Part shown: positions 8,681-52,312 of the stretch, in pieces
How the letters are laid out: each line of letters opens with the position of its first letter
How positions within the stretch are numbered: the stretch's first letter is position 1
NCBI GenBank assembly: GCA_013239625.1
Contig: MU053557.1
Coordinates: 3,564,123 to 3,628,122, forward strand
DNA from: Lama guanicoe
Lineage: Eukaryota
Length of the DNA: 64,000 nucleotides
Direction of reading: 5' to 3'
The notes under the pieces: model-generated
What the model saw: only the letters and a program-made list of their open reading frames with translations
What the model was told of the DNA's origin: nothing
Databases searched by the model: none
Translations under genes and position numbers: made by a program

Positions 8681-9072
8681 GGAGGTGTGTGAGAGAGACC
8701 CACCCTACCAGAGCTTCTGTCTGTATCTTCATCTGTTTGTTGTACAACTTGAAATCACTCTTGCATATTGGTGATAGAGTAAAACAAAACAAACAACAAA
8801 AAAAAACCCGGTACGAAGTCAGTACAGGATTTGGTGCACTGCCAAGAAATACCAGTCTGAGATCTCCATTGACCTAGAGAGATTTTGAAGATTTCCTAGT
8901 GGCTTTACTATGCATGTTTCCTCTCCCTACCCTGTTACCTCTTTTCCCACCCTCCAATAAGCAGATCCCTCTCTGCAGCAGCAGGGACACCTGTTTTTGG
9001 AAACCAAGAATCTCTTGCAACTTCATAAAATTTTTCTTTTAGGATCCCTTCACGCTGTCATCTCACTGTGAC

Positions 9073-10090
9073 ATTGCATTAAATGTGTGGATGGCCTTGG
9101 GCAGTATGGCGATATTAACCATGCTGATTCTTCCAATCTGAGAACATGGGATCTCTTTCCATTTCTTTAAGTCATCTGTAATTTCCTTAATCAGTGTTTC
9201 TTAGTTCTCCATGTATGAGTCTTTCACCTCCTTGGTCAGATTTATTCCTAAGTATTTTATTGCTTTGGATGCAATTTTAAAAGAGATTGTTTATTTACTT
9301 TCTTTTCCTGCTAATTTATGTTAGTGTAAAGAAATGCAACTGATTTTTGTATGTTAATCTTGTATCCTGCTACCTTGCTGAATTCTTTTATCAGCTCTAG
9401 TAGTTTTTGTGTGGCGCTTTTAGGGTTTTCTATACATAGTATTAGATCATCCCCATATAGTGACAATTTCAACTGTTCTCTTCCAATTTGGATCCCTTTT
9501 ATTTCTTTTTGTTGCCTGATTGCTGTGGCTAGGACTTCCAAGCCTATGTTAATAGAATTGGGGAGAGTAGGCATCCTTGTCTTGTTCCAGATTTTAGTGG
9601 GAAGGCTTACACTTTTTCACTGTTGAATATTATGCTGACTGTGAGTTTGTCGTAAATAGCTTTTATTATGTTGAGATATGTTCCCTCTATACCCATATTG
9701 GTAAGAGTTTTTCTCATAAATTGGTGTTAAATTTTATCAAATGCTTTTTCTGCATCTATGGAGATAATTGTATGGTATTTGTCCTTTCTTTTGTTGATGT
9801 GATGTATCACATTGATTGATTTGTATATGTCGAACCATCTTTCTGTCCCTGGGATGAACCTAACTTGATCATGGTTATAATCTTTTGTATGTGTTGTTGG
9901 ATTCTGCTTGCTAATATTTTGTTGAGGATTTTTGCATCTATGTTCATCAATGATATTGGCCTATCATTTTTTTTTTTGCAGTGCCTTTTTCTGGTTTTAA
10001 TATCACAGTGATGGTGGCATCATAGAATGAGTTTGGGACTATTCCCTCCTCTTGACTCTTTTGGAACAGTTTGAGAAGGTTCAATATGAC
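9073..10090 (-). mobile_element. Internal LINE-1 ORF2 (RT) fragment
   Basis: [35 protein letters not shown] on -; no 3' UTR or poly(A). Confidence 0.9.
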
Positions 10091-11231
10091 CTCTGTAAGC
10101 ATTAGAATGAAAATGATCACTTGGCTGCTGTGAGGACAAAACTGAGGGGTCCAGGGTAGAAATAAGAAGCTTGTTAATTAGCTCTTGCAACTGATTGGAG
10201 AGACTTCGATGAGGGAATGTTGGTGCAGATGGAACCCTGAGGGGAGGATTCAAGAAAATACCAGGAGATGAGCTTGATAGGATGAGGTGATGAGGTGGAT
10301 ATGACTTGTCAGGGAAATGGAGGTTTCAGAATGACTCCCAGGTGTCTGACTAATATAAGAGGACGTGTGGTGGTGCCATTCAAGGAGATGGGGATATTGG
10401 CCTCTCCTGGCTCTTAGGATAAAACCAGTGCCTGTTCCCATGACACCCAGTGCATGATTTTACCTTTGCCTACCCATCCTGCCTCATCTCACATCCCTCT
10501 GTGCCTGTCCATGGGTTTCAGCCACAGGGATGCACTTTCAGTTCTTTGGAGAAATCAAATTCTCCTTGTCCTCAGGATATTTGCATATTCAGGAACCTCA
10601 ATCCAAAATATTCATGGCCAAGATGGGTTCTTCACAACTTCGAGTCCCAGCTTAAATGACACTTTAAGGGAGGGGGGAGGGGCAAATAGGAGTGGGGATG
10701 TAAGAGGTACAAACTATTATATATGAAATAAATAAGCTACAAGTATACACTATACAACACAGGGAATATAGCTAACATTTTATAATAAGTATAAATGGAG
10801 TATAATCTTTAAAATTGTGTATCAGTACATTGCACCCCTGAAACATATAATATAGTACGTCAAATACACATCAATAACAAATTTTTAAGTGTCTTCTGAA
10901 GTAGGGAATAGTCACGTGAAGCGTCTGGAAACACTATCAGATAAAGAACAGTTGATGAAAATGGAGACGTTCGAGTTAGAGACAAGGGGAGGGATACAAT
11001 GATACGTCTTACTGAAAATGCGAGTTCTCTTTATCAGAACAGGCTCTCTGGAGTTTATGACCCAAGGAAAAGATTATCTGGTTATCCCCTTCTGAACAGA
11101 GCCCCCCAAATGAAAACAGGACAAACTAAAATCACTTCATTGCTTTATTCATTCTCTATGGGGGTCACTACATTTGAAGAAGGAAGGAGAGCGCCATCCC
11201 CTCCCACCTCTGCTCCTGCTCTGCTCCGCTG

Positions 11232-11255
11232 TCACACCAGATACGAGAGGGCCTC
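11232..11255 (-). CDS. SCGB3A2: SCGB3A2 left copy, exon 3 coding part (EALSYLV*)
   Basis: Mirror of 33873-33896; AATAAA on - at 11144-11149. Confidence 0.94.
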   Translation of the reverse strand, partial: EALSYLV

Positions 11256-11653
11256 CTGAAAATCAAAAGGACAGTGGTAAAAACAACACCAGTTTACCTG
11301 TCATTAGCACCTTTCCAGAAACAGTCACTATCCTATTTCACCACCATGTCACTGACAAGGAAAGGGAAGCTCTGAGTGGTTAAGTCCCATCCAGAACCAC
11401 AGAGCTGGGAAGTGGCCCACATTTCACAACTAGAACACAGGTCTCTGTCCTTCCAAAATCCCTTCTACAAGTGTGGACACTGAGCTTTCCTTGAGATTCC
11501 AGGACATGGAAATTTTGTGTGAGGAGAGTCAGCAAAGGGGAAATACAGGTTCACAGATGAGGACAGGGTTGGGTGGGAGTCAGGGGAGAGGGTGGGCATT
11601 CAGGGTGACTAGGTCCTGCCCTTTGACAAGTTAGCCTCACAGGTCATAGTTAC

Positions 11654-11856
11654 CAGCAGTTTCTTCACGGAATTCGCAGCCTCCGGTCCCAGCTCATTCA
11701 CACATTTCCTCAGCCCGTCCAGAAGGTGCTCAACAGAAATGCCCAGAGTTTTCAGAAGTAGCTTTAATGGGCTCAAGCTGGGGAGAATTTTGTCCGCAGG
11801 TAAAGGTACAACATCGTTGACAGGAGCTGCCAAACCACTGAGGAGGAAGGCGGTGG
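11654..11856 (-). CDS. SCGB3A2: SCGB3A2 left copy, exon 2 (…RKCVNELGPEAANSVKKLL)
   Basis: Mirror of 33272-33474; intact splice sites; the only difference I see is codon 73 (GAG here, GGG in the right copy). Confidence 0.95.
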
Positions 11857-12940
11857 CTGTAGAGCAAAAGAGACCCCGCGTAAAACAGGCACTTCCAGCT
11901 CTGGTGACCTCAGCTGGTCCACGCTGTCCATCAGTGGCTCCATCCCAGCCCCACTCATCTCGATCTTCCAGGAAAACTTCTGCTTCGGGACCTTTGTACG
12001 TGCCATTCCAACTGTCTAGAACGTTGCTTCCCCAGATAGCTACACATCTTTCTTCCTCCCATCATTCGGTCTCTCCTCCAAAGTTACCTTCTCAGGGACG
12101 TACCTACAAGAGCATCACCTGTCACCCTCAGTCTCCCTCTTCTCCCACCAATACCTGAAATATCAAATCTTTGGTTATTTCTGTATTTTGCTTCATTCTG
12201 CCACTGGAATGTAGGCCCATGAGAATAAGCAATTAATGTTTTATTCACACTGTACTACATGCCTAGATCAGACCCTGGCATGTGGGAAGCACCAGATAGA
12301 TACTGGAGACTGACCGGCCAGGGATGTACTTTGCCCACGGCTGTCTTCACGGCCCACAAGTTTGAAGCCAAAGGGGAGAGAATATAATGAACCTCCACTT
12401 GCAGACAAGTCTTAGCCCCCCTGCCAGACTGTAAGAACCTTGAGAACAATATTCACATCTGATTCAGGTCTGAATCGGCCAGTTTCTATCCAGTGCCCAA
12501 CAGGTTATAGCCATTCAGTCGATATCCACTGATTGTGTGAACAGATACATGTGGCCATGTCTCAAGAGAACCACCTTGGCAACCTGACTAGAGATGAGAG
12601 CAAGAATGACTCCGTACAGTTACAGACGCATAAAGGAAAGAAGGTACAAAGTCAGATCCGGACTCAAAATTAAGAACAATTAACGGTGACCAGTGTTCAC
12701 TAATGAAGGGTTTGCTGACCCTCAGCGGGAGCTGGGTAACTTCTTGTGTAGGAGCCACCAGGGAGACCTGTACTGGGTTAGAGCTTGGAGCTGGGAGCGG
12801 GGGCAGCTGAAATCCCTTCCAACCTTACCATTCTGTGGTTCTAAACTCCCTCCACCATGTTCCACTGGGAGCCTAGGCTTCCTAGTTGTGTTCCTGTTAA
12901 CAGAAAAGTCGAGAAATACCATATGTTCCCGGCTACTTAC

Positions 12941-12995
12941 CAGAGTAACTGCAAATGCTGATGGTCACCAGCAGGAACACAGTGACCAGCTTCAT
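12941..12995 (-). CDS. SCGB3A2: SCGB3A2 left (duplicate) copy, coding exon 1
   Basis: Reverse complement of 32133-32187 (coordinate sum 45128); intact ATG and gtaagt donor. Confidence 0.95.
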
Positions 12996-13117
12996 GGTAC
13001 GTTACCTGGGATATTTACCTGCAGTTTAAAATTAAACTGGAAAACCTAATGAACCCACCGAGCCAGTGGTTCCACTTGCTGTACCAAGTGTGGCAGCTGC
13101 TCTTGCACACACACATA

Positions 13118-13250
13118 TTTATACGCCCATCGAGGGCCTGAGTTTCAATCACAACCACTAGATTTGCCTCAGGGAAGAGGAGCGTGAAGGTCACGTGTCC
13201 TCACTAAACAAATTGGAGTTTTTTTCCGCATTCCCTCATGTTCCCATGAG
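13118..13250 (-). promoter_or_regulatory. SCGB3A2: Proximal promoter of left SCGB3A2 (TATAAA on - at 13118-13123)
   Basis: TATA conserved; sequence upstream of about 13155 diverges from the right copy. Confidence 0.65.
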
Positions 13251-13429
13251 AAACAAAGCCCTAACTTACAGCACTCTCAAGGAACTTTGGTACAAGCTCT
13301 TCCCCAGAGACACTGATGGGAAGCAAAGAGGGCTGATACCTTCTCCTAGAAGGCCCTAGGATGACCCTTTTTGTAAGCCCAAGTTCTACAGTTACTTGGG
13401 GTATCTGCTGCAACAAAGAATGAAACTTT

Positions 13430-14186
13430 CATGTACCCCAGTGCTCATGGCAGCAGTATTTACAATAGCCAACACATAGAAGCAAACTAAATGCTTATCG
13501 ACTGATGATTGGATAAAGAAGATGTAGTACATATATATAACGGAAATCTACTCAGCCAGAAAAAAGAAAGAAAGAATGGCATTGGCAGTAACATCAGTAG
13601 GTCTAGGGATTGTCATACTAAGTGCAGTAATCAGAAAAAGACATATATATCACTTATATGTGGAATTAATAATGATAGAAATGAACTTTTTACAAAACAG
13701 AAACAGTAAACAACAAGGTTCTTAGCACAAGGAAATATATTCATATCTTGTAGTAATCTACAATATGAAAATGAAATATGAAATGAATACACGTATGAAT
13801 ACATACACAGGTATGACAGAAACATTATGCCGTACACCAGAAATTGGCACAACATTGTAAACTGACTGTGCTTCAATTAAAAAAAAACTACAACAGAAAC
13901 AGACTTCACATACATAAAAAAACAAATTTATGGTCACCAATGGGGAAAGGTGGGGGGAGGGGTAAATTAGGAGGTTGGGATTAGCAGATACACATTACTA
14001 TACATAAAATAGATAAACAACAAAGCCCTAGTGTATGGCACAGGCACTACATTTAATGTCTTGTAATAAACTACCATGAAAACGGATACGAAAAAGAGCA
14101 AATTATATGTGTGTAACTGAATCACTCTGCTATATACTGGAAACTAACACAACATTGTAAATCAACTATACTACAATTTAAAAAAA
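13430..14186 (+). mobile_element. L1 3' fragment with nested younger L1 3' end (13707-13891, TSD aacagaaacag)
   Basis: L1 ORF2-end/3' UTR motifs; 11-bp direct repeat at 13696-13706 and 13892-13902. Confidence 0.85.
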
Positions 14187-14699
14187 GTAGGAAGGAATGT
14201 TGAAGGGGAGAAATAGGGATCAGGGTCCAGGTGGGTCCCAGTCCCAGCTCCGAGCTCCCTGACCAAATGGCACTGCTGGCCCAGCACCCCAACCTCTGAA
14301 GACATGCTCGGAACATTCTGAGGAAGATCCATCGAGGTGCCAGGCCAGGAGCTGGGGCCACGCTGGGCGGTGGGCTGTTGTTAAGAGGATTTAATGTAAT
14401 TCTGTAGACGGAGGATGAAACTGCACCAAACCAAGATTAACACATGCTAAGTGTCACCTGCTGCTAATTTCTATACATCACCACGTTGTAACTGCCTTTC
14501 CTTGATTTTTCTGCTGCTTTATAAACGGCATGAAGGAGCTCACGTATCACCCCCACACGCAGACCATCCTGCCACTTCTACCGCTTTCTCTGCTAGAGGT
14601 GGGGCTTCGATTTTTCTGGAGAATGATCACCTCCAAGGACGCTGATGTGCCAAAACTCTCAGGGGCCAAGGTTGGGTGGTAAAGTGGTGGTGAGCTGAC

Positions 14700-15415
14700 A
14701 CCACCCTTCATTTCTGTGCTGTGACCTTTTTAAGGGACCAAACCAGCACTGCCCTCCCTCTGCTCGTCGTCCCCACTTTGCTCTCCGATCCTTTCCGATC
14801 CTCTCCATGCACGACCCCCGCTCTGCTCTGCCTAGAGGAAGCTGACTTTCCCAAACTGTGGTTTCCAGACCTCCTTGCCAACTGCGATCTGGTTAGGATC
14901 CACTCGTGGGAGGCCCTGGTAAACGATCAGATGGGAGAGGAGACAGAAGGAAACATCAGGGGAGTCTCCCTCCGCCTGCTTCAGGAGACACCTCGGGCAG
15001 TGACTGCCGCTTCTCCACGGCTCCAGCTCCTTCCAGAACAGCCCTTCGTCTGCGGTCCCACACCAGCCAGGCAGCCCCACCTTTGTTCGGCTCCTACTGC
15101 TCAATAAATATTTGTTAAACGGCTAATTCAGTTTCAACTCCTGATTATAAATTTAATCGCCACAAAAATTCATTTGAAAAGCACATTGAAAAATTAATTT
15201 CCCCCCTGCTCCTGGGCCCCACCTGCTCTCCCTGTCCTCCCAGCCAAGAAAAAGTAGCAGCTGCTTGCATTTCCCATCTCAAGCTGGACGCACCTGTCCC
15301 CTGGTTGCTGTCACTGAACTTCTAGCACCTTGTAAATGATCCTTCAGGTTAAATTCTTCCCATTTGATCATCTGGTATGGTTTTTGAGTTTCTGGCTGGC
15401 CTGGACTCTAACACC
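14700..15415. mobile_element. Old LTR-like element (ERVL/LTR33-like), mirrored at ~29275-29990
   Basis: Pattern recognition only; family assignment uncertain. Confidence 0.45.
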
Positions 15416-16198
15416 TACGAAAATATACTAAAGTAAAGCATCCTAAAATATAGTAGCGCTGTTGGTAAAAACAGATCTTTCAGTTTTGAAACACAGGCTC
15501 TCTCTCACAAGTGCCACGTTGTGAGTCCACGAGGGGCTGGACCAAGATCCAAGAGAAACAGAGGGACACACACAGACACACGCTTCTCCCTTTCAACCCC
15601 AGAGAGTGTGGTACTGGTTCCAGCTTGTCTGCTGGGCCCAGAGGTGAGTTTTTTCCCAGGAAGCCCCTCAGAGCCCCGTGCTAAGAGAGTTCTGGTGGGC
15701 CCACATAGTAGCCGGCCACACATGCAGTCTTGACCAAAGCCTAGTAGTAAACAGCTAGAACCTCATCCACACAAAACAAACACACACACACACACACAGA
15801 TTCTCTCTCTGTCTCATTCACACACACAAATGTCCACATGCTTACACATATGTGAACGGTCATGTGTCCACATGCACAGACACAGACCACACATAACCAT
15901 CAAGCATTACTGCTTTCATTCTTTTTGTTCCACAAATATTTACTGAGCCTCTGCTGTGTGCCAGGCACTGTCAGGAACGAAGACTAGAGCCGTAAACCAG
16001 ACAAGAATTTCTTGCTTCTGTGGGGCTGACAGTGTAATGGGATAAACAGACAAGAAACAGGTAAACCAAGAAAACAAGCAGTGGTAAGAGCTATGAAGAA
16101 GCAAATCGGGTGCTTTGATGGTGGAGAACAAGAGGATGGGGGGACAGTCAGCCTTGCAAAGAGACTCAGACGTGGCTACTTCCACACCTCCTGCCACC

Positions 16199-16697
16199 TG
16201 AATTTAAGTATTGACATTTTGTGGCCTTGCTGACCCTGGAGGGACTTCCCCTCTCAGGGCTAGCTAATCCTAGAGATGGCAAATGCTCACCTGGGAGTGC
16301 ACCTGCCGTATGCAAACCAACCATCCCCACACTGCCAAGCACCTCCTCTAGGGAGCCCTTACACTAGGCCACTGTCCATCTGCCTCAGTCACCCCCAGGG
16401 CCCGGTACCAGACACCTCGGGACGGTCCCCACACCCGAGCCCAGTAGAATTATTCAAACAAGACTATTCTAGTCCTGTTTACCCGGTCTTCCCATCCCGT
16501 CCCATGGAAACCACAGTAAAGTCTCCTGCCCACACCCCTACCCCACCCTCCTGACAAACCTGGTGCTTCCACGTGGCCCTACCGCCCTGGGGTGTGATGT
16601 GCCCTGTTCTTGGGATCTGGGAGTATAACAGACTGTCTTTACAACGACACTCATCTCCTGGTCTGCTGGCCTGAGTAATGAAACATACTTTAAAACA
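16199..16697 (+). mobile_element. ERV-type solo LTR, mirrored at ~27993-28491
   Basis: TG...CA termini, about 500 bp, octamer ATGCAAAC and MER-LTR-like text; family not determined. Confidence 0.55.
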
Positions 16698-17122
16698 GCC
16701 ATCTAGCCTTTCCTTGTGCCTTTGTTATGCTACTGACACTGTCTTTCTTTGCAGCATACTTATTTGTATTAGTGTCTTCTTTTCCTGGACTAATTTGCAT
16801 ACATCTCAAGGGGGTCTGTCCTGTTCATGTTTGGATGCTAACAGAGAGTCCTACATACTTGATAATATTATTAGGAACTACCAACCGGTGCCGGGCATAC
16901 ACTTTGCATATGGTTTCATACTTCATGCTCATCAAATGCCTGATGATAAGAGCCTTTATCCCATTTTATAAATAAGGAGTATGAAGCTGGAAACAACAAA
17001 TTAATTACCAAGGTCATTTAGATAATAAATTTGTGTCCTTTCTTTTCTGATTTTTTTCCTTGACCTTTAAACACTTAATTGATATGCATTTTTAGTAAAC
17101 ATTTGTTAAATAAATTAATTCA

Positions 17123-20100
17123 GGGGCTCGGCCAAGATGGTGATATAGTAGGATGCCCAGCTCACCTTCTTCCATGAATTCAGCAAAACCTACACCTACA
17201 TACAGAACATTCACACAGAAAACACACTGAACTTTTATCAGAATATCTCTTACATTGGAAATCCTCAGAAAACTGTAGGAAGAAAAAAAGAAAGAAAATC
17301 AGTGAGAGACCTGTCCCCCACGGTGAGAGGGCAAAGGAGGAACAGCACCCTCGCTCTGGGAAGCCCTCTCTCAAGCAGGGAGTTCGGCAGGGACAGAAGG
17401 GGAGCTTCTGAGACTTGGAAGAGAAAGCAGCATCGACTTGGCAGACAGAACTGGGAGAGACCAGCACAGAGAGTCCCTGCAATCCCTAGCTTGAGATGCA
17501 AGCCGGCAGGAGCAGCCAGGACTGGCTGTTGGAGCCCAGGCTTCCACAGATAAGCATGGCAAGAGGACTAGCTAGGGCTGTCTGCACAGAGGCAGCCTCA
17601 GACAGCTGTAGTGTAAATGCAGGCTGAGGCTGGGACAGAAGGCAAATAAGCCTGAGCCCCTCCATAGGAAGCATCAATGCTGGTGTGTGTGCAAGGAGGG
17701 GTTCAATGCAGCTCAGCCATTGCAGCCAGCTCCACTAGCCCAGGAGGTATTGCTCAGCACCATTGCTGGTGTGAATTCTTGTGAGAAGAGAGGCCAGGTT
17801 CAGAAACAGCCATTTTCTCAGCTTGCTCTAGAGGGGCACAATTGCTGGTACGAGGCTCCTAGGTGGAGGTGGGGCTGAAAACTGAACCCATACCCATGGG
17901 GTCCTGCAACTTTGTAGACAGGACTGATATTTGATTCTAGCCCCAGGCAGCTGTGACAGATTTGCTCTGCTCGTGCCTCTGTGGACCTGTGCCTGTGAGA
18001 CAAACAAGCAGAGTTCTGGTGCAAGGTGCAGGCAGGTCTGGCATTAACAATGGCCCTGTGTACCATACAAGGACACTGGACTGAGGACTGGGCTGACATT
18101 GGTGTGTGGTGAATCCAAGAGTGTGGCTGCATGTGCATTATGGCAAGTCCTAGTGCTTTATGTCAATGGACCTGCACTGGTTGCTCTGCAAGTACAGAAC
18201 CTGGGGGACACCAGAGCATGTTGCCTATATTCCCACAGCTGGGGCAGGAACAAGGGCAGTGTCAACAAAGTGTACTTTGTAAGCCGCATAACAAGTGGCA
18301 GACATCTCAGAGGACACTTATGGTGGACATCTCCTGCAGAAGAGTACTCAGCGATTCCTCTTCTAGTGAAAGTGCTCCAGTTCTGTCTGCCACATTCTAC
18401 AGCTCAGAAATAGGACTGGAAGCCTCATTCCAAAGGCAGAGGGGAGCAAACCCGGCCCCTGTCAGGGCTGTGACATCCACAGAGCAAAGAAGAGGCCCCT
18501 CTCAACAACCAGGGCAGGCTCTGGTCACCACAACACAAACCATACCCCTAATCAAGGGAATAACAGCCAGCAACATGGAAGAAATACGTGGCAACCATAT
18601 ATACTGAAAACAGCCCTCGTGACAAAATTACTAGACGTGCACAATCAAGAAGGAATGCTCCCACTTTAAAAAAAAAAAACAGCCCTTGTGACCATGGTAG
18701 ATAACTATTATGCCTAAATTCACAGAGTGAAAAATAGAAGTAAAATGAAGAAGCAGAGGAACCATGCCCAATTAGAAAAAAAAAAACAAGAGAAGTCCAT
18801 TGAAAGAACGAACAATGAAATAGACCTTGACAGTCTACTGGATCCTGACATCAAAAAAGAGATGATAAGAGCACTGAAGGAAATAAGAGAGATTATGAAC
18901 AGAAATGCGGAATACTAAAAAATGAAATAAGGAAATAGAAACTATAAAGAGGAGCCAATTAAAATCAGAAAACATAATTGCTATGATAAAGGCTGAGCTA
19001 AAGGCAGTCAAAAGCTAATCATGTAGAAGAATGAATAAATGATTTAGAAAAGAGAATAGTAGAAATCACCCAGTCAGAACAGCAGACAGAAAAATGAATC
19101 AAAACCAATGAAGGCAATATAAGAAACCTATGGGATAATATAAAGTGTGCCAATCTATGCATAATAAAGTTCCCAGAAGGAGAAGCAAAAGGGGGTTGAT
19201 AAGGTATTTGAAGAAGTCATGACTGAAAGTTTCCCAAACCTAAAGAAGGAAATAGATATCCAAGTACAGGAAGCACAGAGGATCCCAAACAAACAAACAA
19301 ATAAACAAACAAAAGAGACCCACACCAAGACATATTATAATTAAGATGGCCAAATTTAAAGATAAAGGAAACATTCTAAGGGCAACAAGGGAAAGACAAA
19401 GAGTCAGTTACAAGGGAACCCCTATAAGGCTTCCAGCTGATTTCTCTACGCAAACACTCCTGGCCAGAAGGGATGGCAAGGTAGAGTCTAGGACACTCTA
19501 CCCAGTAAGACTATCCTTTGAAATAGGGAGAGAGATAAAGAATTTCACAGACAAGTGAAAACAAAAAGAATTCGGCAATACTAAACCTATCCTAAAATAA
19601 ATATTGAAAGTTATTCTCTAAGTAGAAAAGAAGAAGGAAGCTATCAAAAAGAGAACACCATAATTGGAAAGGCAATAACTATAGTAAGCTGCAAGAGAAT
19701 AACCATGAAGATGTGAAAGAGGACATCAAAATCATAAAATGTGTGAGAGGGGAGCAAGTAAATGTAAATTTTATTTTCTTTCTTCTTTGGAGGTGTGTGA
19801 GCCTATAAGACTACCAGTCTAAAGCAAACAGATATAGTAATGGGTGAACATACTTGAAAAACAGCATAACTACAGATCAAAAGCAGGCAGTAGAGTCACA
19901 AAAACCAAAAAGAAACCAACCCAGTACAAAGGAAAATTATCAAAACACAAAAATAAAAACAAAAAGAAACAGAAAGAAAGAAGTAAGAAATACCAAATCA
20001 ACTGGAAAACAAAGTTTAAAATGGTAATAGGCACACATCTATCAATAATTACCCTAAATGTCAATGGACTAAATGCTCCAATCAAAAGACATACAGTGGC

Positions 20101-30503: not shown

Positions 30504-31070
30504 TTTTTTTAAATTGTAGTATAGTTGATTTACAATGTTGTGTTAGTTTCCAGTATATAGCAGAGTGATTCAGTTACACACATATAATTTGCTCTTTTTC
30601 GTATCCGTTTTCATGGTAGTTTATTACAAGACATTAAATGTAGTGCCTGTGCCATACACTAGGGCTTTGTTGTTTATCTATTTTATGTATAGTAATGTGT
30701 ATCTGCTAATCCCAACCTCCTAATTTACCCCTCCCCCCACCCTTCCCCATTGGTGACCATAAGTTTGTTTTCTGTGTCTGTAAGTCACTTTCTGTTTTGT
30801 AAATTAGTTTATTTGTATAATTTTTTTTTAGATTTCACATATGATACATATTTTTCTTTCTCTGTCTGACTTACTTCACTTAATATGAGAATCTCTATGT
30901 CCATTCATATTGCTACAATGGCTTTATTTCATTCTTTTTAATGGGTGAGTAGGATTCCATTGTATAAATATACCACATGTTCTTTATCCATTCATCTGTC
31001 CATGGAAATTTAAGGTGCTTCCGTGTCTTGGCTATTGTATATAGTTCTGCTATGAATAGTGGGATGCATT
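30504..31070 (-). mobile_element. L1 3' fragment, paralogous position to 13430-14186, lacking the nested insert
   Basis: Same 5' junction (atgaaacttt) and same 3' junction as the left-arm element. Confidence 0.85.
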
Positions 31071-31879
31071 AAAGTTTCATTTTTTTCTCTTTTTCTTGCA
31101 CCAGATACCCCAAGGGCTTTCAAAAAGGGTCATCCTGGGGTCCCAAGGCTGTTTTCAAAAGGGCAGCCTTGTAAGCAGAATGCTCCTGTGGCCAGCACAG
31201 TATATCTTTTGCATAATGCAAGGGATTGGACTACAGAAGGGTTCTGAAATTCATATTTTGAGATTATAGAGATGAGGTCTTGTTAAAAAAAAATCTATTT
31301 TCTTAGCGTCACACACCTTTGGGACCATTTTGCCACTAGCCGTTAAATGACCTGTTTTTGATGAGGAGAACAATACTATAGATTAAAAAGGTCAAATTCA
31401 AATTACACAGAGTCAATATTGAATCCCACGTTTTCAAAAAGAAATTTTGATTTTAGATCCTGACCCTGTTATTCTATATGAGAACATGGCCCTGGGTTTT
31501 CCCCAAATAAATGGGAGACACTAGAAAAGGTAAAAGTCTTGCTATAGTAGATGTAGGAGCAGGGATGGGGTGGGCAGAGGTCAGTTCCAGAGAGACATGG
31601 CACCAAATGCCGTTAAGCTGAGTCTGTATTGTTTCAGGGCTGAAGGGGCCTCGGGACTGATCCTACAACTGGGCAGCCTGTCAGGTTGTGTGATTCTCCA
31701 AACTTTCAATGAATTGGAAGCACCAGAATTTTCATTCCCTTTAATCCCAATATAACCTTCCCTTCTTTTCAGAATTCTTCCAAAAGAAGGCCTTAATGCT
31801 CTTTGCTTCCCACCATCATCTCTTGGGAAGAGCTTGTGCCAGAGGTCCTTGAGAGTGCTGTAAGTTAGGGCTTTATTTC

Positions 31880-32010
31880 TCATGAGAACATGAGGGAATG
31901 CGGAAAAAAACACCAATTTGTTTAGTGAGAAACGTGACCTTCACGCTCTTCAACTCTGGGGCGAGTCAAGTGGTTGTGATTGAAACTCAGGCCCTCGATG
32001 GGTGTATAAA
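31880..32010 (+). promoter_or_regulatory. SCGB3A2: Proximal promoter of right SCGB3A2: TATAAA 32005-32010, NKX2-type TCAAGTG 31966-31972, FOX-like TGTTTAG near 31920
   Basis: Motifs read directly. SCGB3A2 is an established NKX2-1 (TTF-1) target, but use of these exact sites is inferred. Confidence 0.7.
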
Positions 32011-32132
32011 TATGTGTGTGTGCAAGAGCAGCTGCCACACTTGGTACAGCAAGTGGAACCACTGGCTCGGTGGGTTCACTAGGTTTTCCAGTTTAATTTT
32101 AAACTGCAGGTAAATATCCCAGGTAACGTACC

Positions 32133-32187
32133 ATGAAGCTGGTCACTGTGTTCCTGCTGGTGACCATCAGCATTTGCAGTTACTCTG
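32133..32187 (+). CDS. SCGB3A2: Secretoglobin 3A2 (UGRP1), right copy, coding exon 1 (signal peptide MKLVTVFLLVTISICSYS)
   Basis: ATG at 32133 in ccATGa context; hydrophobic signal peptide; phase-1 donor G|gtaagt at 32187/32188; matches the known SCGB3A2 N-terminus. Confidence 0.96.
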
Positions 32188-33271
32188 GTAAGTAGCCGGG
32201 AACATATGGTATTTCTCGACTTTTCTGTTAACAGGAACACAACTAGGAAGCCTAGGCTCCCAGTGGAACATGGTGGAGGGAGTTTAGAACCACAGAATGG
32301 TAAGGTTGGAAGGGATTTCAGCTGCCCCCGCTCCCAGCTCCAAGCTCTAACCCAGTACAGGTCTCCCTGGTGGCTCCTACACAAGAAGTTACCCAGCTCC
32401 CGCTGAGGGTCAGCAAACCCTTCATTAGTGAACACTGGTCACCGTTAATTGTTCTTAATTTTGAGTCCGGATCTGACTTTGTACCTTCTTTCCTTTATGC
32501 GTCTGTAACTGTACGGAGTCATTCTTGCTCTCATCTCTAGTCAGGTTGCCAAGGTGGTTCTCTTGAGACATGGCCACATGTATCTGTTCACACAATCAGT
32601 GGATATCGACTGAATGGCTATAACCTGTTGGGCACTGGATAGAAACTGGCCGATTCAGACCTGAATCAGATGTGAATATTGTTCTCAAGGTTCTTACAGT
32701 CTGGCAGGGGGGCTAAGACTTGTCTGCAAGTGGAGGTTCATTATATTCTCTCCCCTTTGGCTTCAAACTTGTGGGCCGTGAAGACAGCCGTGGGCAAAGT
32801 ACATCCCTGGCCGGTCAGTCTCCAGTATCTATCTGGTGCTTCCCACATGCCAGGGTCTGATCTAGGCATGTAGTACAGTGTGAATAAAACATTAATTGCT
32901 TATTCTCATGGGCCTACATTCCAGTGGCAGAATGAAGCAAAATACAGAAATAACCAAAGATTTGATATTTCAGGTATTGGTGGGAGAAGAGGGAGACTGA
33001 GGGTGACAGGTGATGCTCTTGTAGGTACGTCCCTGAGAAGGTAACTTTGGAGGAGAGACCGAATGATGGGAGGAAGAAAGATGTGTAGCTATCTGGGGAA
33101 GCAACGTTCTAGACAGTTGGAATGGCACGTACAAAGGTCCCGAAGCAGAAGTTTTCCTGGAAGATCGAGATGAGTGGGGCTGGGATGGAGCCACTGATGG
33201 ACAGCGTGGACCAGCTGAGGTCACCAGAGCTGGAAGTGCCTGTTTTACGCGGGGTCTCTTTTGCTCTACAG

Positions 33272-33474
33272 CCACCGCCTTCCTCCTCAGTGGTTTGGCA
33301 GCTCCTGTCAACGATGTTGTACCTTTACCTGCGGACAAAATTCTCCCCAGCTTGAGCCCATTAAAGCTACTTCTGAAAACTCTGGGCATTTCTGTTGAGC
33401 ACCTTCTGGACGGGCTGAGGAAATGTGTGAATGGGCTGGGACCGGAGGCTGCGAATTCCGTGAAGAAACTGCTG
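33272..33474 (+). CDS. SCGB3A2: SCGB3A2 right copy, exon 2 (ATAFLLSGLAAPVNDVVPLPADKILPSLSPLKLLLKTLGISVEHLLDGLRKCVNGLGPEAANSVKKLL)
   Basis: Acceptor tctcttttgctctacag, 203-nt open exon, donor gtaact at 33475; contains the SCGB3A signature PLKLLLKTLGISVEHL..GLRKCV. Confidence 0.97.
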
Positions 33475-33872
33475 GTAACTATGACCTGTGAGGCTAACTT
33501 GTCAAAGGGCAGGACCTAGTCACCCTGAATGCCCACCCTCTCCCCTGACTCCCACCCAACCCTGTCCTCATCTGTGAACCTGTATTTCCCCTTTGCTGAC
33601 TCTCCTCACACAAAATTTCCATGTCCTGGAATCTCAAGGAAAGCTCAGTGTCCACACTTGTAGAAGGGATTTTGGAAGGACAGAGACCTGTGTTCTAGTT
33701 GTGAAATGTGGGCCACTTCCCAGCTCTGTGGTTCTGGATGGGACTTAACCACTCAGAGCTTCCCTTTCCTTGTCAGTGACATGGTGGTGAAATAGGATAG
33801 TGACTGTTTCTGGAAAGGTGCTAATGACAGGTAAACTGGTGTTGTTTTTACCACTGTCCTTTTGATTTTCAG

Positions 33873-33896
33873 GAGGCCCTCTCGTATCTGGTGTGA
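33873..33896 (+). CDS. SCGB3A2: SCGB3A2 right copy, exon 3 coding part (EALSYLV*)
   Basis: Acceptor tttgattttcag; GAG GCC CTC TCG TAT CTG GTG TGA; joined CDS 55+203+24=282 nt = 93 aa + stop. Confidence 0.95.
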   Translation, partial: EALSYLV

Positions 33897-33978
33897 CAGC
33901 GGAGCAGAGCAGGAGCAGAGGTGGGAGGGGATGGCGCTCTCCTTCCTTCTTCAAATGTAGTGACCCCCATAGAGAATG

Positions 33979-33984
33979 AATAAA
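33979..33984 (+). terminator. SCGB3A2: Polyadenylation signal of right SCGB3A2
   Basis: AATAAA about 80 nt after the stop codon. Confidence 0.8.
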
Positions 33985-36900
33985 GCAATGAAGTGATTTT
34001 AGTTTGTCCTGTTTTCATTTGGGGGGCTCTGTTCAGAAGGGGATAACCAGATAATCTTTTCCTTGGGTCATAAACTCCAGAGAGCCTGTTCTGATAAAGA
34101 GAACTCGCATTTTCAGTAGGATGTATCATTCTTTTCCTCCCCTTGTCTCTAACTCGAACGTCTCCATTTTCATCAACTGTTCTTTATCTGACATTGTTTC
34201 CAAACTCCTCACATGCCTATTCCCCTACTTCAGAAGACATTTAAAAATGTTTTAATTGACATATAGTTGATATATATAATATGTTTCAGGGGTGCAATGT
34301 ACTGATACACAATTTTAAAGATTATACTCCATTTATACTTATTATAAAATGTTAGCTATATTCCCTGTGTTGTATAGTGTATACTTGTAGCTTATTTATT
34401 TCATGCATAATAGTTTGTATCTCTTAGGGCCCTACCCCTATGTTGCCCTGCCCACCTTCCCTCCCCTAACTGGTAACCCCTAGTTTGTTCTCCACATCTG
34501 TGAGTCTGTTTCTTTTTTGTTCTGTTCACTAGTTGGTTGTATTTTTTAGATTCCTCATATAAGTGATATCATACATTATTTGTTTTTCTCTGTCTGACTT
34601 GTTAGACCTTGCCTACAGAAATGTTAAAACATGAAATAGAATAGAATTTTCAAAGTATTGTCTGACTAAGTTCTTCCAAACCTCACTGGTTCGGAGTCTA
34701 CATCCCCAGTATGCAGGTTCCTGTTAAGTTTGCTTTTGTATTAGGGCCACTACAAGGCTTCAGAGACCCTGCCACCAGTCATTCTCTGGCAAATGGGCTC
34801 TGAAACGTCCTTTCCCTTCCATGCTACCGTTTACAGTGATTCCAGGATTATCTTTTCCAAGACATAATTATAGCCCTATACGACCCCATAGAAGATAGTT
34901 TTCAAGCTCCTCAGCATGGCATCCGAGGTCTTTCCGATCTGGCCTTTGCTTCCATGTCTAGCCTCATCAGTACTCCTTTCTTCACGTGTGCTCCAGCTCT
35001 AGCCGTGCTGAAAAGATAACTAAATCTATTTGCTGCTAATACTTTCATGCCTTAATGAACAATCGAGTTTCTTCCCCCCTGGAAAGTCGTCCCGGGTCTG
35101 CCTCCAACCTGGGGCTTGTTCCAGTCTTGGACTATTTGTCCTGAGGTCCATTCCCTGTGGTCCCCGTGCTCAGCTCCATGTTGGGCAAAGGGAGGGGACA
35201 TGATGCTGATCCCTCAGGTTTCTTTCCTCAGGTTCCCAGGCCAGTTGAGCTTTGGGCTGTGAGGCCCAGGCAGGAGATAGGAGGTTGGAAAAGGGGCAAG
35301 GCCAGAGTGTGGCCTCCTTTCTGTCTCCCTTTGGGAGAAGTCTCTGGAAGTGCTTGCACTATGTCTGAGCCGCCAAGCCCTGCTAGATGGATCTGTGTGG
35401 GTTGCAGCTTTTGCCAGGTGACTCCATTCCCCGGGCTCTGCTTGTACCATCTCCTTGTTGTCTCTCCAGCTGAGGTTCTAGGGATTTCCTGCCATCATCA
35501 GCTTCTAGGTTGCCTCACCATCACCTGTTTGATTTTTTAGGTCTCCCATTGTCTGTCAGATCAGTTCTGTGCATTACATTCTCTCTGTTTCAAGCATCTC
35601 TTTCCTGGTTATTTCCTGACTAACATAATTTTAACTGCCGTCTCCTCTGTGAAGATTGTCTTGATTCCGGCCATTTCTTAACCTGCATATTTGTTGACAA
35701 CTAGAATTGTTGAACTTTGTGTAACTTCTGTTTTCCTTCCTCATTTTACCTGAGTCTAGTAAGAATAGACTAGCTTACCTAGCCGTGGTGATAAATAAGT
35801 GCACATCTCAGGGCTTACATCCACAGCATTTTAATATTTTTTCTCGCACTATATGGCCACCTGAGTTGGCTGTCACTCTCCCCCATAGCCTGAATTCTGT
35901 GACCCAGAGCTGATGGGACAGTCTTTGGAGCATTTCTGATCATCATGGCACATAGGAAAGAGTGCTTTGTGCACCATCGGCTAATTTTCAAAGCTTCCCC
36001 TTGGAAGTGACCCTGTCCTGTTTCATTGACCTAAGCAAGTCACATGACATGCCTAACTCACTTAGGAAGGGCATGTTCAATTCTACAGGAAGAGAGGATG
36101 CCAAGTACGGGTTAGCATAATATAATTTACTACCTTACTTGACTACTTCAGGGTAATCGCCCCCTGAGACACCTCCACTCTGCTTGTAATTTTCAGCTCC
36201 TTTGGATCATCTTTCCTCCCGCTTCTAGTATCGACCTGACTACTTGACTCTTGTTTTTTGGTTTCTTTCAATGGCCCTTATTTTCCTGACTTCCTCTGAA
36301 TGTTGATGCCTCCAAAGAAAGATTCTAAACTTGATTCCTCTTCTCTTTTGACACTGGGGGGTCTCATGCATTCCCGTAGCTGGCAATATAATCTCTGTGT
36401 AAATGTTAGCTATCTTGATTGTGGTGGTGGTTTCATGGGTGTATACATCTGTCAGAATTCATCAAACTGTACAACTGGAATATGTGTAGTGTACTGTACA
36501 GGAACCATACCAGAGTAAGGGTGTTCAGTCAATCAGTCAATCCATCAGGAAAAAATATATATAACCTCCATGTTAGGACCTCTACAATCTGTAGCTACAA
36601 CCTATAGCTTTTCTTTGAGAAGAGATTTAATTACCTGTAAGTCACTTCCAGCAGATGCCCTCTTTATAATGTTCAGCTCAGCAGACATTTATGTGGACTT
36701 CCCGTCTGTCCCTTAAAACACACTGATGTTCTCATTTCCTGTCTCGCTCTGTAGCACTGATTTCCTTGTTGCTTAGACTTGGGGATCATTCGAAGTACCC
36801 CCTCTTCTCAGCCTTACTTTCTAATTGCTGGGAAAGCCCTGTTGATGATAAGCCTTTTTCTTTGTATCGTATACGTTTTTTCATTATCTCGACTGCCACT

Positions 36901-37629
36901 GCTCTTCCCCAAACCTTGTCACCCCCAGCAGACTGCTGTGCCAGGCTCTGCATCCCAAAGCTGATCTTTTCCAGCCCTTCAGTTGCACCACTGGAAAAGC
37001 GGTTTCTTAAAATACAAGAGTCATTCCCCAGTTTCAAACTCTTTGATAGTTTTTTTAGTGCTGATTGAAAACAAGTCATACACTATTTTAAAGCAATAAA
37101 CATATTCATAACCCGTATTTAGACGTACTTATTTTCCGACTTACTGCAAAATCTCCTTTCCAGACTGTGGAATTAAATGGGTAGGGACCTGAACTTATTT
37201 GTATCTGTATCCTCAGCACATAGCACAGAGCCTGTAGGTAGGCAGCATTAGGGTTTGCGGTTATTGAATGGATGGATTTCTTTCTGTTAAGTTTTATCTT
37301 GTTAGGTTGATCCTTTTGTTCTTTCTCATCCATCACATTAGTAAGCTATTCATTACTATTTCTCCTAGCTTGCCGTGCTTTGCATATTTAAGAAGGATGA
37401 CTATGCCTTCATTCAAGGTGCTAAGTGGAGAAGACTGAGGAAAGAGTTCTGTGTCATCAAGCTTTGAGTAACAGATGTAATACGGCAATCTACTGGGGCT
37501 AGAGGTTTCTTTGTGGGGGAGTGTGTCAAAGGGACTGATTCAGTTAAGAAGGAATTAGAGGACGGACTATGTTGAGGAAAATAGGCAGAACCTGATGATA
37601 AACATTATGGCAGAAGCTGATAAAATTAC

Positions 37630-38650
37630 TTATGAAAGTGACGACAACAAATGCTGGCGAGGATATAGAAAAGTTGCATCATTCCGACATTGCTGGTGCA
37701 GATGTAAAATCTTACCGCTACTCTGGAAAAATACTTCGACTGTTTCTTAAAAAACTAAACAGGGAGCTACCATACAACCCGGCAATTGTAGTCCTAGGCA
37801 TAGATCCAGAGAAACCACATTTATGTTTATGCAAAGCCTGCATGCAAATGTTCATAGCAGTTTTATTTGTAATAATCAACACCTAGAAACCACCCAGTTG
37901 TCCTTGAATGGATGAACGGTTAAACAAACTGCTGTACATCTATCTATAGGATTGGAATACTAGCAGCAGTAAACAGAACGAACTCTTTTTTTTTTAATCT
38001 TTCCTCTGGTGAAAAGTAAATTTATTTATTTATTTATTTTTTTTTTCCTATATAAACATTTTTTATTGATTTGTAATAATTTTACAATGCTGTGTCAAAT
38101 TCCAGTGTAGAGTACAATTTTTCAGTTATACATGAACATACCTACATTCATTGTCACATTCTCTTTCGCTGTGAGCCACCACGAGATCCTGTATATATTT
38201 CCCTGTGCTACACAGTACAATCTTGTTTATTCTACATTTTGGAGAATGAACTATTGATACACACAGCAACCTGGGTGAATCTTCAGAGAATTATGCTACA
38301 TGAAAAAAAGTCAGTCCCCAAATTCCATTTGTATAAGCATAAACATTCTCAAAGGGACAAAATTATGGAAAAGGAAAACAGATTTGTGAGTTCCAGAAGC
38401 TAAGAAAGGGGCAGGAGTATGAGGAAGCCAGTGTGCTATCTCAGGGCTTCCTGAGAGATGTTTATGGTGATGGAAATGTTTTGTATTTTATCTGTATCGA
38501 TGTCTATATACTGGGTTTAATATTGTAGCAGAGTTTTGCAAGATGTTGCTGTTTGAGGAAATAGTAGAGAATATCAAGATCTCTCTAGTATTTGTTACAA
38601 CCATGTGTGACTCTGTGATTATCTCAACATAAAAGTTTTACTTAAAAAAA
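37630..38650 (+). mobile_element. Old L1 3' fragment with nested antisense young L1 3' end (~37986-38240)
   Basis: L1 ORF2-end remnants; nested element flanked by agaacgaact / agaatgaact. Confidence 0.8.
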
Positions 38651-41600
38651 TTGTGAAGATAATCAGAATATAGAAATATATATTATATGCAATTTAATTA
38701 ATATAAGTTACATAACTGTGATATATAATATGTATTTCTAATTATATATGTATAACTGTGTATATAATTCTCTGTGTGTATAATTACATATGTAACTTTC
38801 ATTCCTTTCTCCCATAAATCCCACGGACTAGAAGAAACCCATGAACAGAGCTACAGGATTTTTCAAAACATTTTCTAACATTTTTTAAAGGCATGCATAT
38901 ATGAATAAGCCATATTTTATTTTAACTGACATCTATGTAAATATTTAAATCATTCCTAGTATATTTTTGTTATTATAAAGAGTTCTACAGTAAACATCCA
39001 TAGATTTACATTTATTTCTGTATTTCATTCTTTCTTTTTTCAGGATGGATTTAAGAGCTGTTTTTTTAATCTGTGTTTTTTTAATTCAATTTTCAATTTT
39101 ATTTATTTATTTATTTATTATTTATTATTTATTAATTAATTAATTTATTTATTTTTAATAGACTTTATTTTTTTTAGAGCAGTTTCAGGTTTACAGCAGA
39201 ATTGAGCAGAAAATACAGAGTCCCCACCCACACATATATACTCCCCTACCCTCAGCATCCCTCATCAGTGTGGCATATTTGGTACAATCAGTGAACCAAC
39301 ATGGGCACATTATCATCAACCAAAGTCCATATTTTACATTAGGGTTCACTCTTGATGTTGTACATTTTTTTTTGTATTTATTTCTTCAGAAAAATCTTGT
39401 GAGTAGAATTGCTAGGCCAAGAATTATTTAGTGTTTAAAATTTTGATTACTGACAAATTTCCATTTAAAGGAGCAGTTGGGATATGAGGTCATTGAGATC
39501 AGAGAAGAGTCATTTCCAAAGATGGATTAGGGACCCAAGACAGTGCTTAGGATGTGGTCGTTGCCTGATCACATTCCCTCCATATCCAGTGAGAACATCT
39601 GCACCATGTCTGTGGCTCCATCACCAGTCATGACTATTTTCTAAAAATTGTATTTTTCCTTTAATAGTTTAATAACTTTTCCTTTCCCACCAGATTTGGC
39701 TGTTGCCTGCATCTCATCAAAACCTGCATATTCACCATTAAAGTAGCATTTCAGCCTATTGGCAAATACATTGGTTGAAGGGATGTTGAGCTATGAAGTT
39801 CTACAGTGCTCCCAAAGCCACCAGACATTAGGAAAAGCTGAACATTTCGCTCGAGTAGGTGACCTACTAGCTCCCTTATGCCGAGGGTCAGTGTGGGAGG
39901 TGCTTTGCTATCAGCTGTTTGCACCTGTTCCCTGGAGGAATAGATGAGAGCTAAGCACCGAGAACCTGAGAAAGCGATAAATTCCTTTTTTGGCTTGATA
40001 TGTTAGAGGGTCTGGAGATGTAATGTATGAATCCTAATATTTCTGGCCTCCATGTTTAAGTCAAGTAATACGAATGAACAGGTCAGTAAGTAAAACTTAT
40101 TTGCTATGGTTTTTTAATTTTTGGAAAAGAACCAGTTGAAAAGCTTACAGGCTGATTAACAGACAGCAGGGAGCGCTCATAGGCTGTTAGCAGTGTTAAA
40201 GAAGACATTTTATTTTTATATCTATTCAAGATCTATAATAAGAAATCTCAGCACCTTCTATTGTGTTAAAAATTTCACTGGGAAACACAAATAATGAAAA
40301 TTATTTGATGTTCCTCCTTTCTATTAAGTACCTCTGGCTTTATTTTGAGCATTTTTGTACAGTGCATTCTTTGCTCTGCCACTGGCTAGGTTTGTGTCTT
40401 TGTCAAATGAGAACTTTTTCCTGATTAAGTAACAGTAACCACTAATATGACTAAAAGTCACAGTAATGGTTGTTGGTTATTAATTATATTCTCTATATAT
40501 TTTTAACTCAAATATGGTGGTGATTGAATATTGATATCTTTGCCAAAAATTGATAAACAAAATGAACAAGGCCCCACAGATTTTGCAGTGTAAAGACACA
40601 GAAATTGTGCAAGTCAGCAGGTAAATAGATGACAAATTATGATCAGGACAATAAAAGAGGAGAATAGGATTTTAAGAATGGTAATAGTGACAAGTTCCAT
40701 GTTTTATTTTGAGTGGTCAAGAAAGTCTTCTTTGGAAGTGTCATCTAAATTGGGACTTGAGGTTGTGAAGAACCCATCTGGGTCAATGAATATTCTTGAC
40801 CCAGGTTCCTGAATATGCAAATATCCTGAGGACAAGGAGAACTTGGCTTCCACAAAGAACCAAAAGAGTATTTGTGTGGCTAAAATCCATGGGCAGGCTC
40901 AGAGGGATGTGAGATGAGGGAGGATGGGTAGGCAAAGGTGAAACCATGCACTGGGTGTCATGGGAACAGGCACTGGTTTTTTCCTAAGAGCCAGGAGAGT
41001 CCTAGACAGCTTTGTGTACAATATCCCCATCTCTAAGAATGGCACCACCACACATCCAGTTATATTAGTCAGACACCTGGGGGTCATTCTGAAACCTTCA
41101 TTTCCCTGACACATCATATCCACCTCATCACCTCATCCTACCAAGCTCACCTCCTGCTATTTTCTTGAATCCTCCCCTGGGGCTCCATATGCACCAACAC
41201 TCCCTCATCCAAGTCTCTCAAATCTCTTGCAACAGCTTTCTAGCAGGCTTCCTGCTTCTACTCTGGACCCCTCAGTCTGGTCCTCACAGCAGCCAAGTGA
41301 TCATTCTCAATCTAATGCTTAAAACCTTTTGGTGTGGCTTTCCACTATTCTTGGAGTTAGGAAGGAAGTCCTGACCACGCCTACGAGGACCTGGAGGCCT
41401 AGCACTTGCTTTCCTCCCCAGCCCTCATTCGTTCCCCAGCCGCCTTGACCTTCAGGCACTGATGAAGCCTGATACAGGGCTTTTGTTAATGCTGTCCAGT
41501 CTTAACTGCTTCCTCTTCATTTACTTCTCCTGAATTTATTTTCATTACCTCCTTGTCATTTTTTTCCCAGATCACAGATCAAGTCTCACGCTCTTAGGAA

Positions 41601-42689
41601 ATCCTCTTCCCTGTCGAAGTGAGATACTTAGTTAGAGCCTCAAATAGAATTATGTTCCCTCCTTCCTGAGCATGTCTCTCAAAAATAATTATATACTTAA
41701 GTATGACTAATACCTGGAGCAGAGTAACATTCAATAAGTGTCTTATGATCAAATGAGTGAGTCACATGAAGTAACATGCACCCATTAGATGATCCATTTT
41801 CTAGATATTCTCAAAGCTGTTTTATTGAAAGAAAGGATAGGAGATGCATTAAGTTCCCTCCAGTACTGACGCCATGGTAGGGACTTTGGGACTGGGGACA
41901 GAGTGATGCTGTGGACCGAGTCCTCAGGCTGCTGCCTCAGGGCAGCAGAGTTGTGTTGGAGGTTAGAACAACCTCCCACTCAGCCTCTATCAGCTCTCAT
42001 ATCTCAGGCATGGTGTTGATTAGCTTCCCTGAGCCTCAGTTTCCTCACCTGTCATGTGGAGAAAATAATGCCAGACCAGGTGATTTCAACTGTCCTGCAA
42101 TTATAAGGTCACAGTGAGATGACAGTGTGAAGGGATCCTAAACGAAAAACCCTATGAAGATGCGAGAGATTCTCGATTTCTAAAAACAGGTGTCCCTGCT
42201 GCTGCAGAGACAGATCTTATCAGAGGGTGGGAAGAGAGGTAACAAAGGGTAGGGAGAGGAAACATGCATAGTAAAGCCATTGGGAAATCTTTAAAATCTC
42301 TCTAGGTCGATGGAGATCTCAGATTGGTATTTCTTGAAAGTGCACCAAATCCTGTACTGACTTGGTACCGGCTTTTTTGTTGTTGTTTGTTTTGTTTTGT
42401 TTTGCTCTATTACCAACATGCAAGAATGATTTCAAGTTGTACAAGAAACAGATGAAGATACAGACAGAAGCTCTGATAGGGCGGGTCTCTCTCACATAGG
42501 GAGGACACTGAGTTTTTACTCATAGTCAGTCTATTTCCCAGGCACAGATTAGGCACTCAGTGTCCAAAGAGAGATTTGGGGGTCACATTTGTCAGGGAGA
42601 AGCAGTCTGACGTCAGATGCTGAATATAATGGAAATCTGGTAACTTTCATTTAAGAGGATATGACGTTTAAAATCAGCACAGCCTTGAA

Positions 42690-49543: not shown

Positions 49544-49592
49544 TCACTTTGATGAATGTTCTTCTCGCTTATCACCAAAGTCCATATAATCT
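49544..49592 (-). CDS. C5orf46: C5orf46 exon 3 coding part (DYMDFGDKREEHSSK*)
   Basis: Acceptor tttttttcccaag; phase matches exon 2; ends HSSK* like the human protein; donor gtgatt 9 nt after the stop; total CDS 267 nt = 88 aa. Confidence 0.9.

Positions 49593-52048: not shown

Positions 52049-52312
<264 letters not shown>

Follow-up and report, generated by a model that had tools for sequence, protein, structure and literature searches.

An inverted SCGB3A2 duplication in Lama guanicoe with two near-identical tracts in older arms, a probable case of gene conversion

The two SCGB3A2 genes and the arms that carry them

We analysed a 64,000-nucleotide stretch of the Lama guanicoe assembly (contig MU053557.1; "the window" below), which holds two copies of SCGB3A2, a club-cell secretoglobin, on the arms of an inverted duplication. 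An earlier note, made from the sequence alone, had described two intact 93-amino-acid genes in inverted orientation with start codons 19.1 kilobases (kb) apart, and the splice sites, the reading frames and a measured distance of 19,138 bases bear this out. The genes stand head-to-head, with ATGs at 12995 (minus strand) and 32133 (plus strand):

Left SCGB3A2, 11232..12995, minus strand: coding exons 12995-12941, 11856-11654 and 11255-11232 (stop included); 93 amino acids; E73
Right SCGB3A2, 32133..33896, plus strand: coding exons 32133-32187, 33272-33474 and 33873-33896 (stop included); 93 amino acids; G73

The coding exons measure 55, 203 and 24 nucleotides (stop included), all four introns of the two copies have GT/AG ends, and the left copy has an AATAAA signal at about 11149. 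The exon-2 frames match the Pfam SCGB3A family (PF20490) with 101.3 bits on the left (E 3.5e-29) and 97.1 bits on the right (E 6.8e-28), at a cut-off of 27. Both copies fit the family description in the available text of PMC11884772, that is, a 55-nucleotide exon 1 with a phase-1 and then a phase-0 intron. The single coding difference between them falls in codon 73 (11694/33434), which reads E in the left copy, as in all 11 other aligned SCGB3A2 proteins, and G in the right copy only. Error, heterozygosity or real paralogous variation could explain the right-copy G73.

A minus-strand self-comparison of the window and an arm-against-arm BLAST delimited four collinear inverted blocks:

Outer block, 8688-9075 against 42496-42105, inverted: 89.1% identity, 36 difference events in 388 columns
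Second block, 10096-10664 against 41321-40736, inverted: 85.2% identity
Gene block, 10668-13352 against 34460-31777, inverted: a mosaic of a near-identical tract and diverged edges
Upstream block, 13892-17122 against 30796-27544, inverted: a mosaic of a near-identical tract and diverged edges

The left arm (8688-17122) is 8.4 kb long and the right arm (27544-42496) 15 kb. What had been called a palindrome of about 34 kb does consist of inverted arms around a spacer, but only 6877 columns of the 33.8-kb span can be aligned arm to arm, at 96.8% identity overall. The outer block had been estimated at roughly 90% identity (8688-9072 against 42108-42496), close to the value measured here.

Two strata of arm identity

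Within the gene and upstream blocks, near-identity is confined to two tracts, whose positions agree with those first reported:

Left gene tract, 11010..13159: near-identical to 34118-31969, with 3 differences in 2150 columns, at 11694, 13049 and 13125
Right gene tract, 31969..34118: partner of 11010-13159
Left upstream tract, 13949..16992: near-identical to 30741-27699, with 8 differences in 3044 columns
Right upstream tract, 27699..30741: partner of 13949-16992

The gene tract starts 165 bases upstream of the ATG and extends about 140 bases past the AATAAA signal, and the left upstream tract starts within a high-copy short interspersed element (SINE) at 13892-14186. Global alignment gave 71 differing columns in the gene block, only 3 of them inside 11010-13159, and 72 in the upstream block, only 8 of them inside 13949-16992. 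With each gap run scored as one event, the tracts together differ at 11 of 5194 columns (0.21%); the remaining alignable arm, here called unconverted, has 207 difference events in 1683 columns (12.3%; Jukes-Cantor distance 0.134). The longest identical runs are 1354, 1333, 978 and 684 columns, compared with a mean longest run of 184 and a maximum of 419 when the difference positions were shuffled 2000 times, and a two-rate model is favored over a one-rate model with a likelihood ratio of 521. The mosaic identity is thus far above chance.

The stratification proposed earlier is real, but it comprises two strata, not three. The unconverted pieces differ by 9.3-18.5%, and their heterogeneity is borderline (p=0.048). 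Separate strata of 90% and 85% in the outer blocks were considered and dropped (p=0.14). A third stratum of about 75%, ascribed in the earlier note to an L1 shared by the arms, was also dropped, as different L1 copies account for it: the left-arm L1 (9077-10078) matches an L1 in the spacer (22513-21490; 79.6% identity), and the collinear piece of the right arm (41322-42104) has no match anywhere in the window.

Diverged margins lie beside the tracts, measuring 343 and 193 bases in the gene block and 57 and 130 bases in the upstream block; 343 bases also separate the end of the gene tract from a 6.3-kb segment found only in the right arm. Tract lengths are nearly equal across the arms (2150 and 2150 bases; 3044 and 3043 bases), and the difference rates of the two tracts, 3/2150 and 8/3044, are indistinguishable (Fisher p=0.54). 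The guanine-cytosine (GC) content of the tracts is 48.4-48.6%, against 37-47% in the unconverted parts of the arms and 40.6% in the whole window, and the observed/expected CpG ratio is 0.29-0.33 in the tracts and 0.22 in the window. All substitution differences within the tracts (10 of 10) are transitions. This composition is consistent with GC-biased conversion but does not prove it.

The remaining features of the arms and the spacer are as follows:

Left outer unconverted block, 8688..9075: partner 42496-42105
L1 fragment of the left arm only, 9077..10078, minus strand: RVT_1 at 9314-9616 and 9730-9960; no collinear partner in the right arm
Left unconverted 3' flank of the gene, 10096..11009: 10668-11009 is about 89% identical to 34460-34119
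Left mid-arm heterology, 13160..13948: edges diverged (83-84%); SINE copies at 13354-13703 and 13685-13886; lies between the two tracts
Left inner unconverted edge, 16993..17122: 24 difference events in 130 columns; arm homology ends here
Spacer, 17123..27543: 10.4 kb
Right inner unconverted edge, 27544..27698: from the arm alignment
Right mid-arm heterology, 30742..31968: SINE at 30797-31070; about 0.6 kb of sequence found only in the right arm at 31141-31776
Right unconverted 3' edge of the gene block, 34119..34460: from the arm alignment
Right-arm-only segment of 6.3 kb, 34461..40735: mostly unique; two SINE copies at about 38021-38241 and 39140-39366
Right outer arm, 40736..42496: 40736-41321 pairs with left 10664-10096, and 42105-42496 with left 9075-8688; 41322-42104 is right-only

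Between the tracts, the heterology amounts to 0.54 kb in the left arm (13353-13891) and 0.98 kb in the right arm (30797-31776), with unlike SINE content. This junction is rich in SINEs, with three copies on the left (13354-14186) and two on the right (30502-31140). Those of the outer pair, 13354-13703 and 31140-30789, are 71% alike, and the right-arm SINE is 82-84% alike to other genomic copies. As their mutual likeness lies below that to other copies, the two may be independent insertions at nearly one site. About half of the spacer is a plus-strand L1 (ORF1 domain at 19256-19555, L1 homology at 20040-22513). A 103-base stretch of the spacer (27398-27500, plus strand) repeats part of the interior of the upstream tract for a third time; it shares 94% identity with left 15098-15200 and runs in the same direction as that arm. 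It sits just inside the inner end of the right arm, beside a 15-base tandem repeat (27515-27544) that is the sole relevant one of the four rows of a tandem-repeat scan, and it may be a rearrangement scar at the center of symmetry. Rfam gave no match on the whole window, and a Pfam scan of 149 frames of at least 77 amino acids found no family in the upstream tract, the 6.3 kb specific to the right arm or the spacer outside its L1.

Outside the palindrome lies one further gene:

C5orf46 homolog (DUF4576), 49547..56404, minus strand: coding exons at about 56404-56336, 52207-52049 and 49591-49547, placed by Pfam and tblastn

This gene is tail-to-tail with the right SCGB3A2 only, as the earlier note had it. 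Human and mouse have a single SCGB3A2, tail-to-tail with C5orf46, and because the right copy shows this arrangement, the right SCGB3A2 is taken as the original copy and the left arm as derived. The C5orf46 product has one true difference (R66H) from the 88-amino-acid alpaca protein (P0092), the other tblastn mismatches being intron read-through. Its main exon (52049-52207) is 76% identical to that of dromedary, and the 13 differing positions among 54 aligned ones take in a gap of 4 residues. These two comparisons place the genome close to alpaca, and the protein looks like a small secreted one that evolves fast.

Probable gene conversion and the alternatives to it

The two strata point, in our judgement with high probability, to an old inverted duplication whose arms have recently undergone gene conversion with each other. 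In the ancient duplication, SCGB3A2 and its flanks would have been copied, with some parts deleted, to a position upstream of the original right gene and head-to-head with it, and the arms would then have drifted apart to about 12-13%. Later, non-allelic conversion would have replaced the sequence of one arm by that of the other in two separate stretches, one comprising the entire transcription unit and about 165 bases 5' of the ATG (2.15 kb) and the other comprising 3.04 kb located 0.95-4 kb upstream. A single duplication age cannot fit, because both tracts are flanked on both sides and in both arms by homologous sequence that is 9-18% diverged. Each tract covers most of an uninterrupted homology block and ends 56-343 bases before the closest insertion/deletion heterology; tracts bounded by the extent of uninterrupted homology are what would be expected of homology-dependent repair. 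Since the heterology between the tracts was not copied, there were probably at least two conversion events, or many overlapping ones.

The earlier note had argued that an old inverted duplication was homogenised in blocks by arm-to-arm conversion and that a single recent duplication would not suffice; the two strata, the shuffle test and the likelihood ratio all agree with this. It had also called the conversion ongoing, for which the window offers at least two recent tracts and derived residues in both copies, and nothing beyond these.

Neutral rates of 1-2.2e-9 substitutions per site per year give approximate dates. On these rates the duplication would be 30-67 million years old (unconverted distance 0.134) and the last homogenisation about 0.5-1 million years old (tract distance 0.0021). 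The older date fits a duplication common to this lineage and Camelus, and this duplication is probably the source of the two diverged SCGB3A2 paralogs of that genus described below.

Several points weigh against this history. Copy number and the 11 paralogous variants are taken from the assembly, and twofold read depth in the tracts is a prediction. Four unplaced contigs (C47267, C49788, C52851 and C53006) duplicate parts of the palindrome, with matches over 497-1213 bases; three of them, 768-1213 bases long, are matched over their whole length. C47267, C49788 and C52851 are 100% identical to right-arm 30797-31293, 31285-32052 and 32004-33181, respectively. C53006 corresponds to left 15780-16992 but has right-arm letters at 16403 and 16424, and is therefore a mosaic of arm variants. 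How the 11 variants are phased, and perhaps how many there are, may consequently reflect assembly choices, and the real tract identity could be somewhat below 99.8%. The GC excess of the tracts could be ancestral and not driven by conversion. Finally, relatives entered the comparison as proteins only.

The most serious alternative builds on these contigs, and we nevertheless consider it unlikely: the near-identity would be an assembly artefact (a collapsed repeat placed twice, a gap filled from the other arm, or polishing with multi-mapped reads), and the real arms would be diverged throughout, or one of them would lack the block. The assembly is indeed fragmented (2.05 Gb in 55,231 contigs), although the window itself is free of any N, and the redundant contigs, the mosaic among them, are what is left over from assembling a two-copy, near-identical repeat. 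Collapse or polishing may remove a few variants but cannot produce two strata. Sequences 12% apart neither collapse nor cross-map and would assemble separately, yet the 2.05-Gb assembly holds no third, diverged copy of the gene tract, exon 2 or the upstream tract. One of the redundant contigs, C49788, runs without a break from sequence specific to the right arm (31285-31968) into the start of the gene tract, and diverged homologous sequence brackets each tract in both arms. For these reasons the redundancy does not undermine the strata. The end of C53006, which falls precisely at the inner boundary of the upstream tract (left 16992), fits a real branch point in the read data.

Reads from other samples bear indirectly on the left arm. 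Fourteen sequencing runs (4 organism labels, 6 study codes) contain 0.81-0.83 of the sampled words of 8600-17200, of which only 60% is tract in common with the right arm; left-arm-specific sequence is therefore present in other samples. Two RNA sequencing runs (X15 and X16) labelled as reproductive system metagenome contain 0.18-0.19 of the left-arm words; these may come from host transcripts or host DNA, and we draw no conclusion on expression from them.

Parts of one arm could instead have been copied onto the other in a second, recent duplication or replacement that did not use homologous repair, for example through template-switching replication. This would agree with the multi-kilobase size of the tracts and with their indistinguishable ages. 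We regard it as very improbable, as the tracts lie in exact register within older homology and show no extra junctions, target duplications or change in length. The heterology between them was left uncopied, and in any case an in-register replacement amounts to gene conversion. Purifying selection alone, holding the gene and an upstream regulatory block near-identical while neutral flanks diverge, can be all but set aside: one tract does coincide with the whole transcription unit and proximal promoter, and both copies are intact, but the 99.8-99.9% identity extends over introns and 3 kb of non-coding DNA with a SINE, and the coding exon changed at 3 of 67 residues relative to alpaca and camel type 1 while the introns would have been frozen.

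Camelid relatives, known systems and significance

An exon-2 protein search returned 36 proteins at E <= 0.001 among 37 candidates, the nearest of them camelid. In RefSeq and GenBank, Camelus has two types of SCGB3A2 protein (clusters P0037 and P0009/P0042). Type 1 is the same in three Camelus species and one residue away from alpaca, and type 2 is known from dromedary and Bactrian camel. The duplication is thus already in public annotation, as two Camelus SCGB3A2 proteins. Of 93 aligned positions, 16 differ between the types, and 14 of these lie in residues 20-48 of the mature N-terminus. In the signal peptide, A11 occurs in both Camelus types, with T in alpaca, in this genome and in 6 of 7 outgroups, and V in capuchin. 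Its presence in both paralogs hints at concerted evolution in Camelus too, and together with the crowding of differences in residues 20-48 it looks like conversion around a protected or selected patch.

Both window copies are type-1-like and differ from each other by one residue, and no type-2-like exon 2 is present in the whole 2.05-Gb assembly, where only the two arm copies were found. A39 and N80 are common to both copies and absent from alpaca type 1, camel types 1 and 2 and 7 outgroups. At residue 54 both copies have K, in place of the E of type 1 in alpaca and camel. Over a 148-residue frame running from intron through exon 2 to intron, both arms have the same 4 differences from the nearest public relative and are 1 apart from each other. 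A tree of 13 protein rows, all of them retained, groups the six camelid sequences as a clade with 99/97 support and joins the two window copies with 92/86 support; it does not resolve how the window pair, type 1 and type 2 branch. The shared residues and the pairing would be marks of concerted evolution, though they come from few sites and from proteins only. A metagenome scan for DNA of relatives gave one spurious locus only (47% identity over 32 residues).

Several known systems resemble this locus. In the palindromes of the X and Y chromosomes (human Y P1-P8; primate and mouse X), as far as the accessible text of PMC3723533, PMC8981503 and PMC8327919 describes them, inverted arms likewise surround a spacer, each arm carries a protein-coding gene, and intrachromosomal conversion maintains identity, with multi-kilobase tracts, GC enrichment and a structurally unstable spacer and inner arm. 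Those palindromes are, by the same partial texts, more than 99% identical over their full arms; here such identity is limited to two tracts totalling 5.2 kb, outside which the alignable arms are about 88% identical. The arms here also differ greatly in length (8.4 and 15 kb), and they carry an airway secretoglobin instead of a member of a testis gene family. Large mammalian palindromes have been defined by arms of at least 8 kb with more than 99% identity along the arm (available portions of PMC8327919 and 10.1101/800185). The present locus has the inverted arms and the spacer, but identity above 99% is confined to the 2.15- and 3.04-kb tracts.

Interlocus gene conversion in segmental duplicates, with its GENECONV-type signal (see also PMC3966223), shows the same sharp-edged, near-identical fragments in older paralogous sequence. 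Its tracts are limited by uninterrupted homology, as here, and we see no difference in principle. The best class for the locus is interlocus gene conversion between inverted segmental duplicates.

The mouse Abp expansion is, like this one, a lineage-specific secretoglobin duplication in L1-rich surroundings (accessible parts of PMC2291036, PMC8525912 and PMC3477143). There, repeated duplication produced dozens of diverging paralogs, and conversion plays little role according to the available text of PMC3477143, whereas the present locus has two copies and conversion would dominate. The Camelus SCGB3A2 pair belongs to the same family and probably to the same ancestral duplication; its members are far more diverged than the two window copies, which are both type 1.

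A 2025 secretoglobin survey gives one SCGB3A gene for dromedary in the text available (PMC11884772). SCGB3A2 appears merely as a lung marker in PMC9448747 and in passing in PMC5957422. In the literature searched, subscription papers and supplements excepted, we found no description of an SCGB3A2 duplication or conversion or of a camelid second copy. The mechanism of conversion is standard; the specific locus and lineage are undescribed in that literature.

We tentatively suggest, as a possibility somewhat short of even, that the same camelid duplication met opposite fates. In Camelus, one copy would have kept or evolved a diverged mature N-terminus; in the lineage studied here, conversion would have erased the second type within about the last million years and left two near-identical genes that share the proximal promoter and the upstream 3 kb. 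The human SCGB3A2 locus is autosomal (chromosome 5), unlike the X and Y palindromes.

As an example of palindrome-type conversion, the locus is compact, is easy to sequence and has unusually clear tract boundaries, which are set by insertions and deletions. It can be compared across camelid assemblies, and it alters no general principle. The contrast with the camel paralogs is the most interesting lead: if their fates were indeed opposite, the locus would be a small natural experiment, presumably autosomal, on conversion versus neofunctionalisation in an airway innate-defence gene. Anti-inflammatory and anti-fibrotic roles of SCGB3A2 are cited in the available text of PMC11884772. If both copies are expressed, airway SCGB3A2 would be doubled or diversified in camelids.

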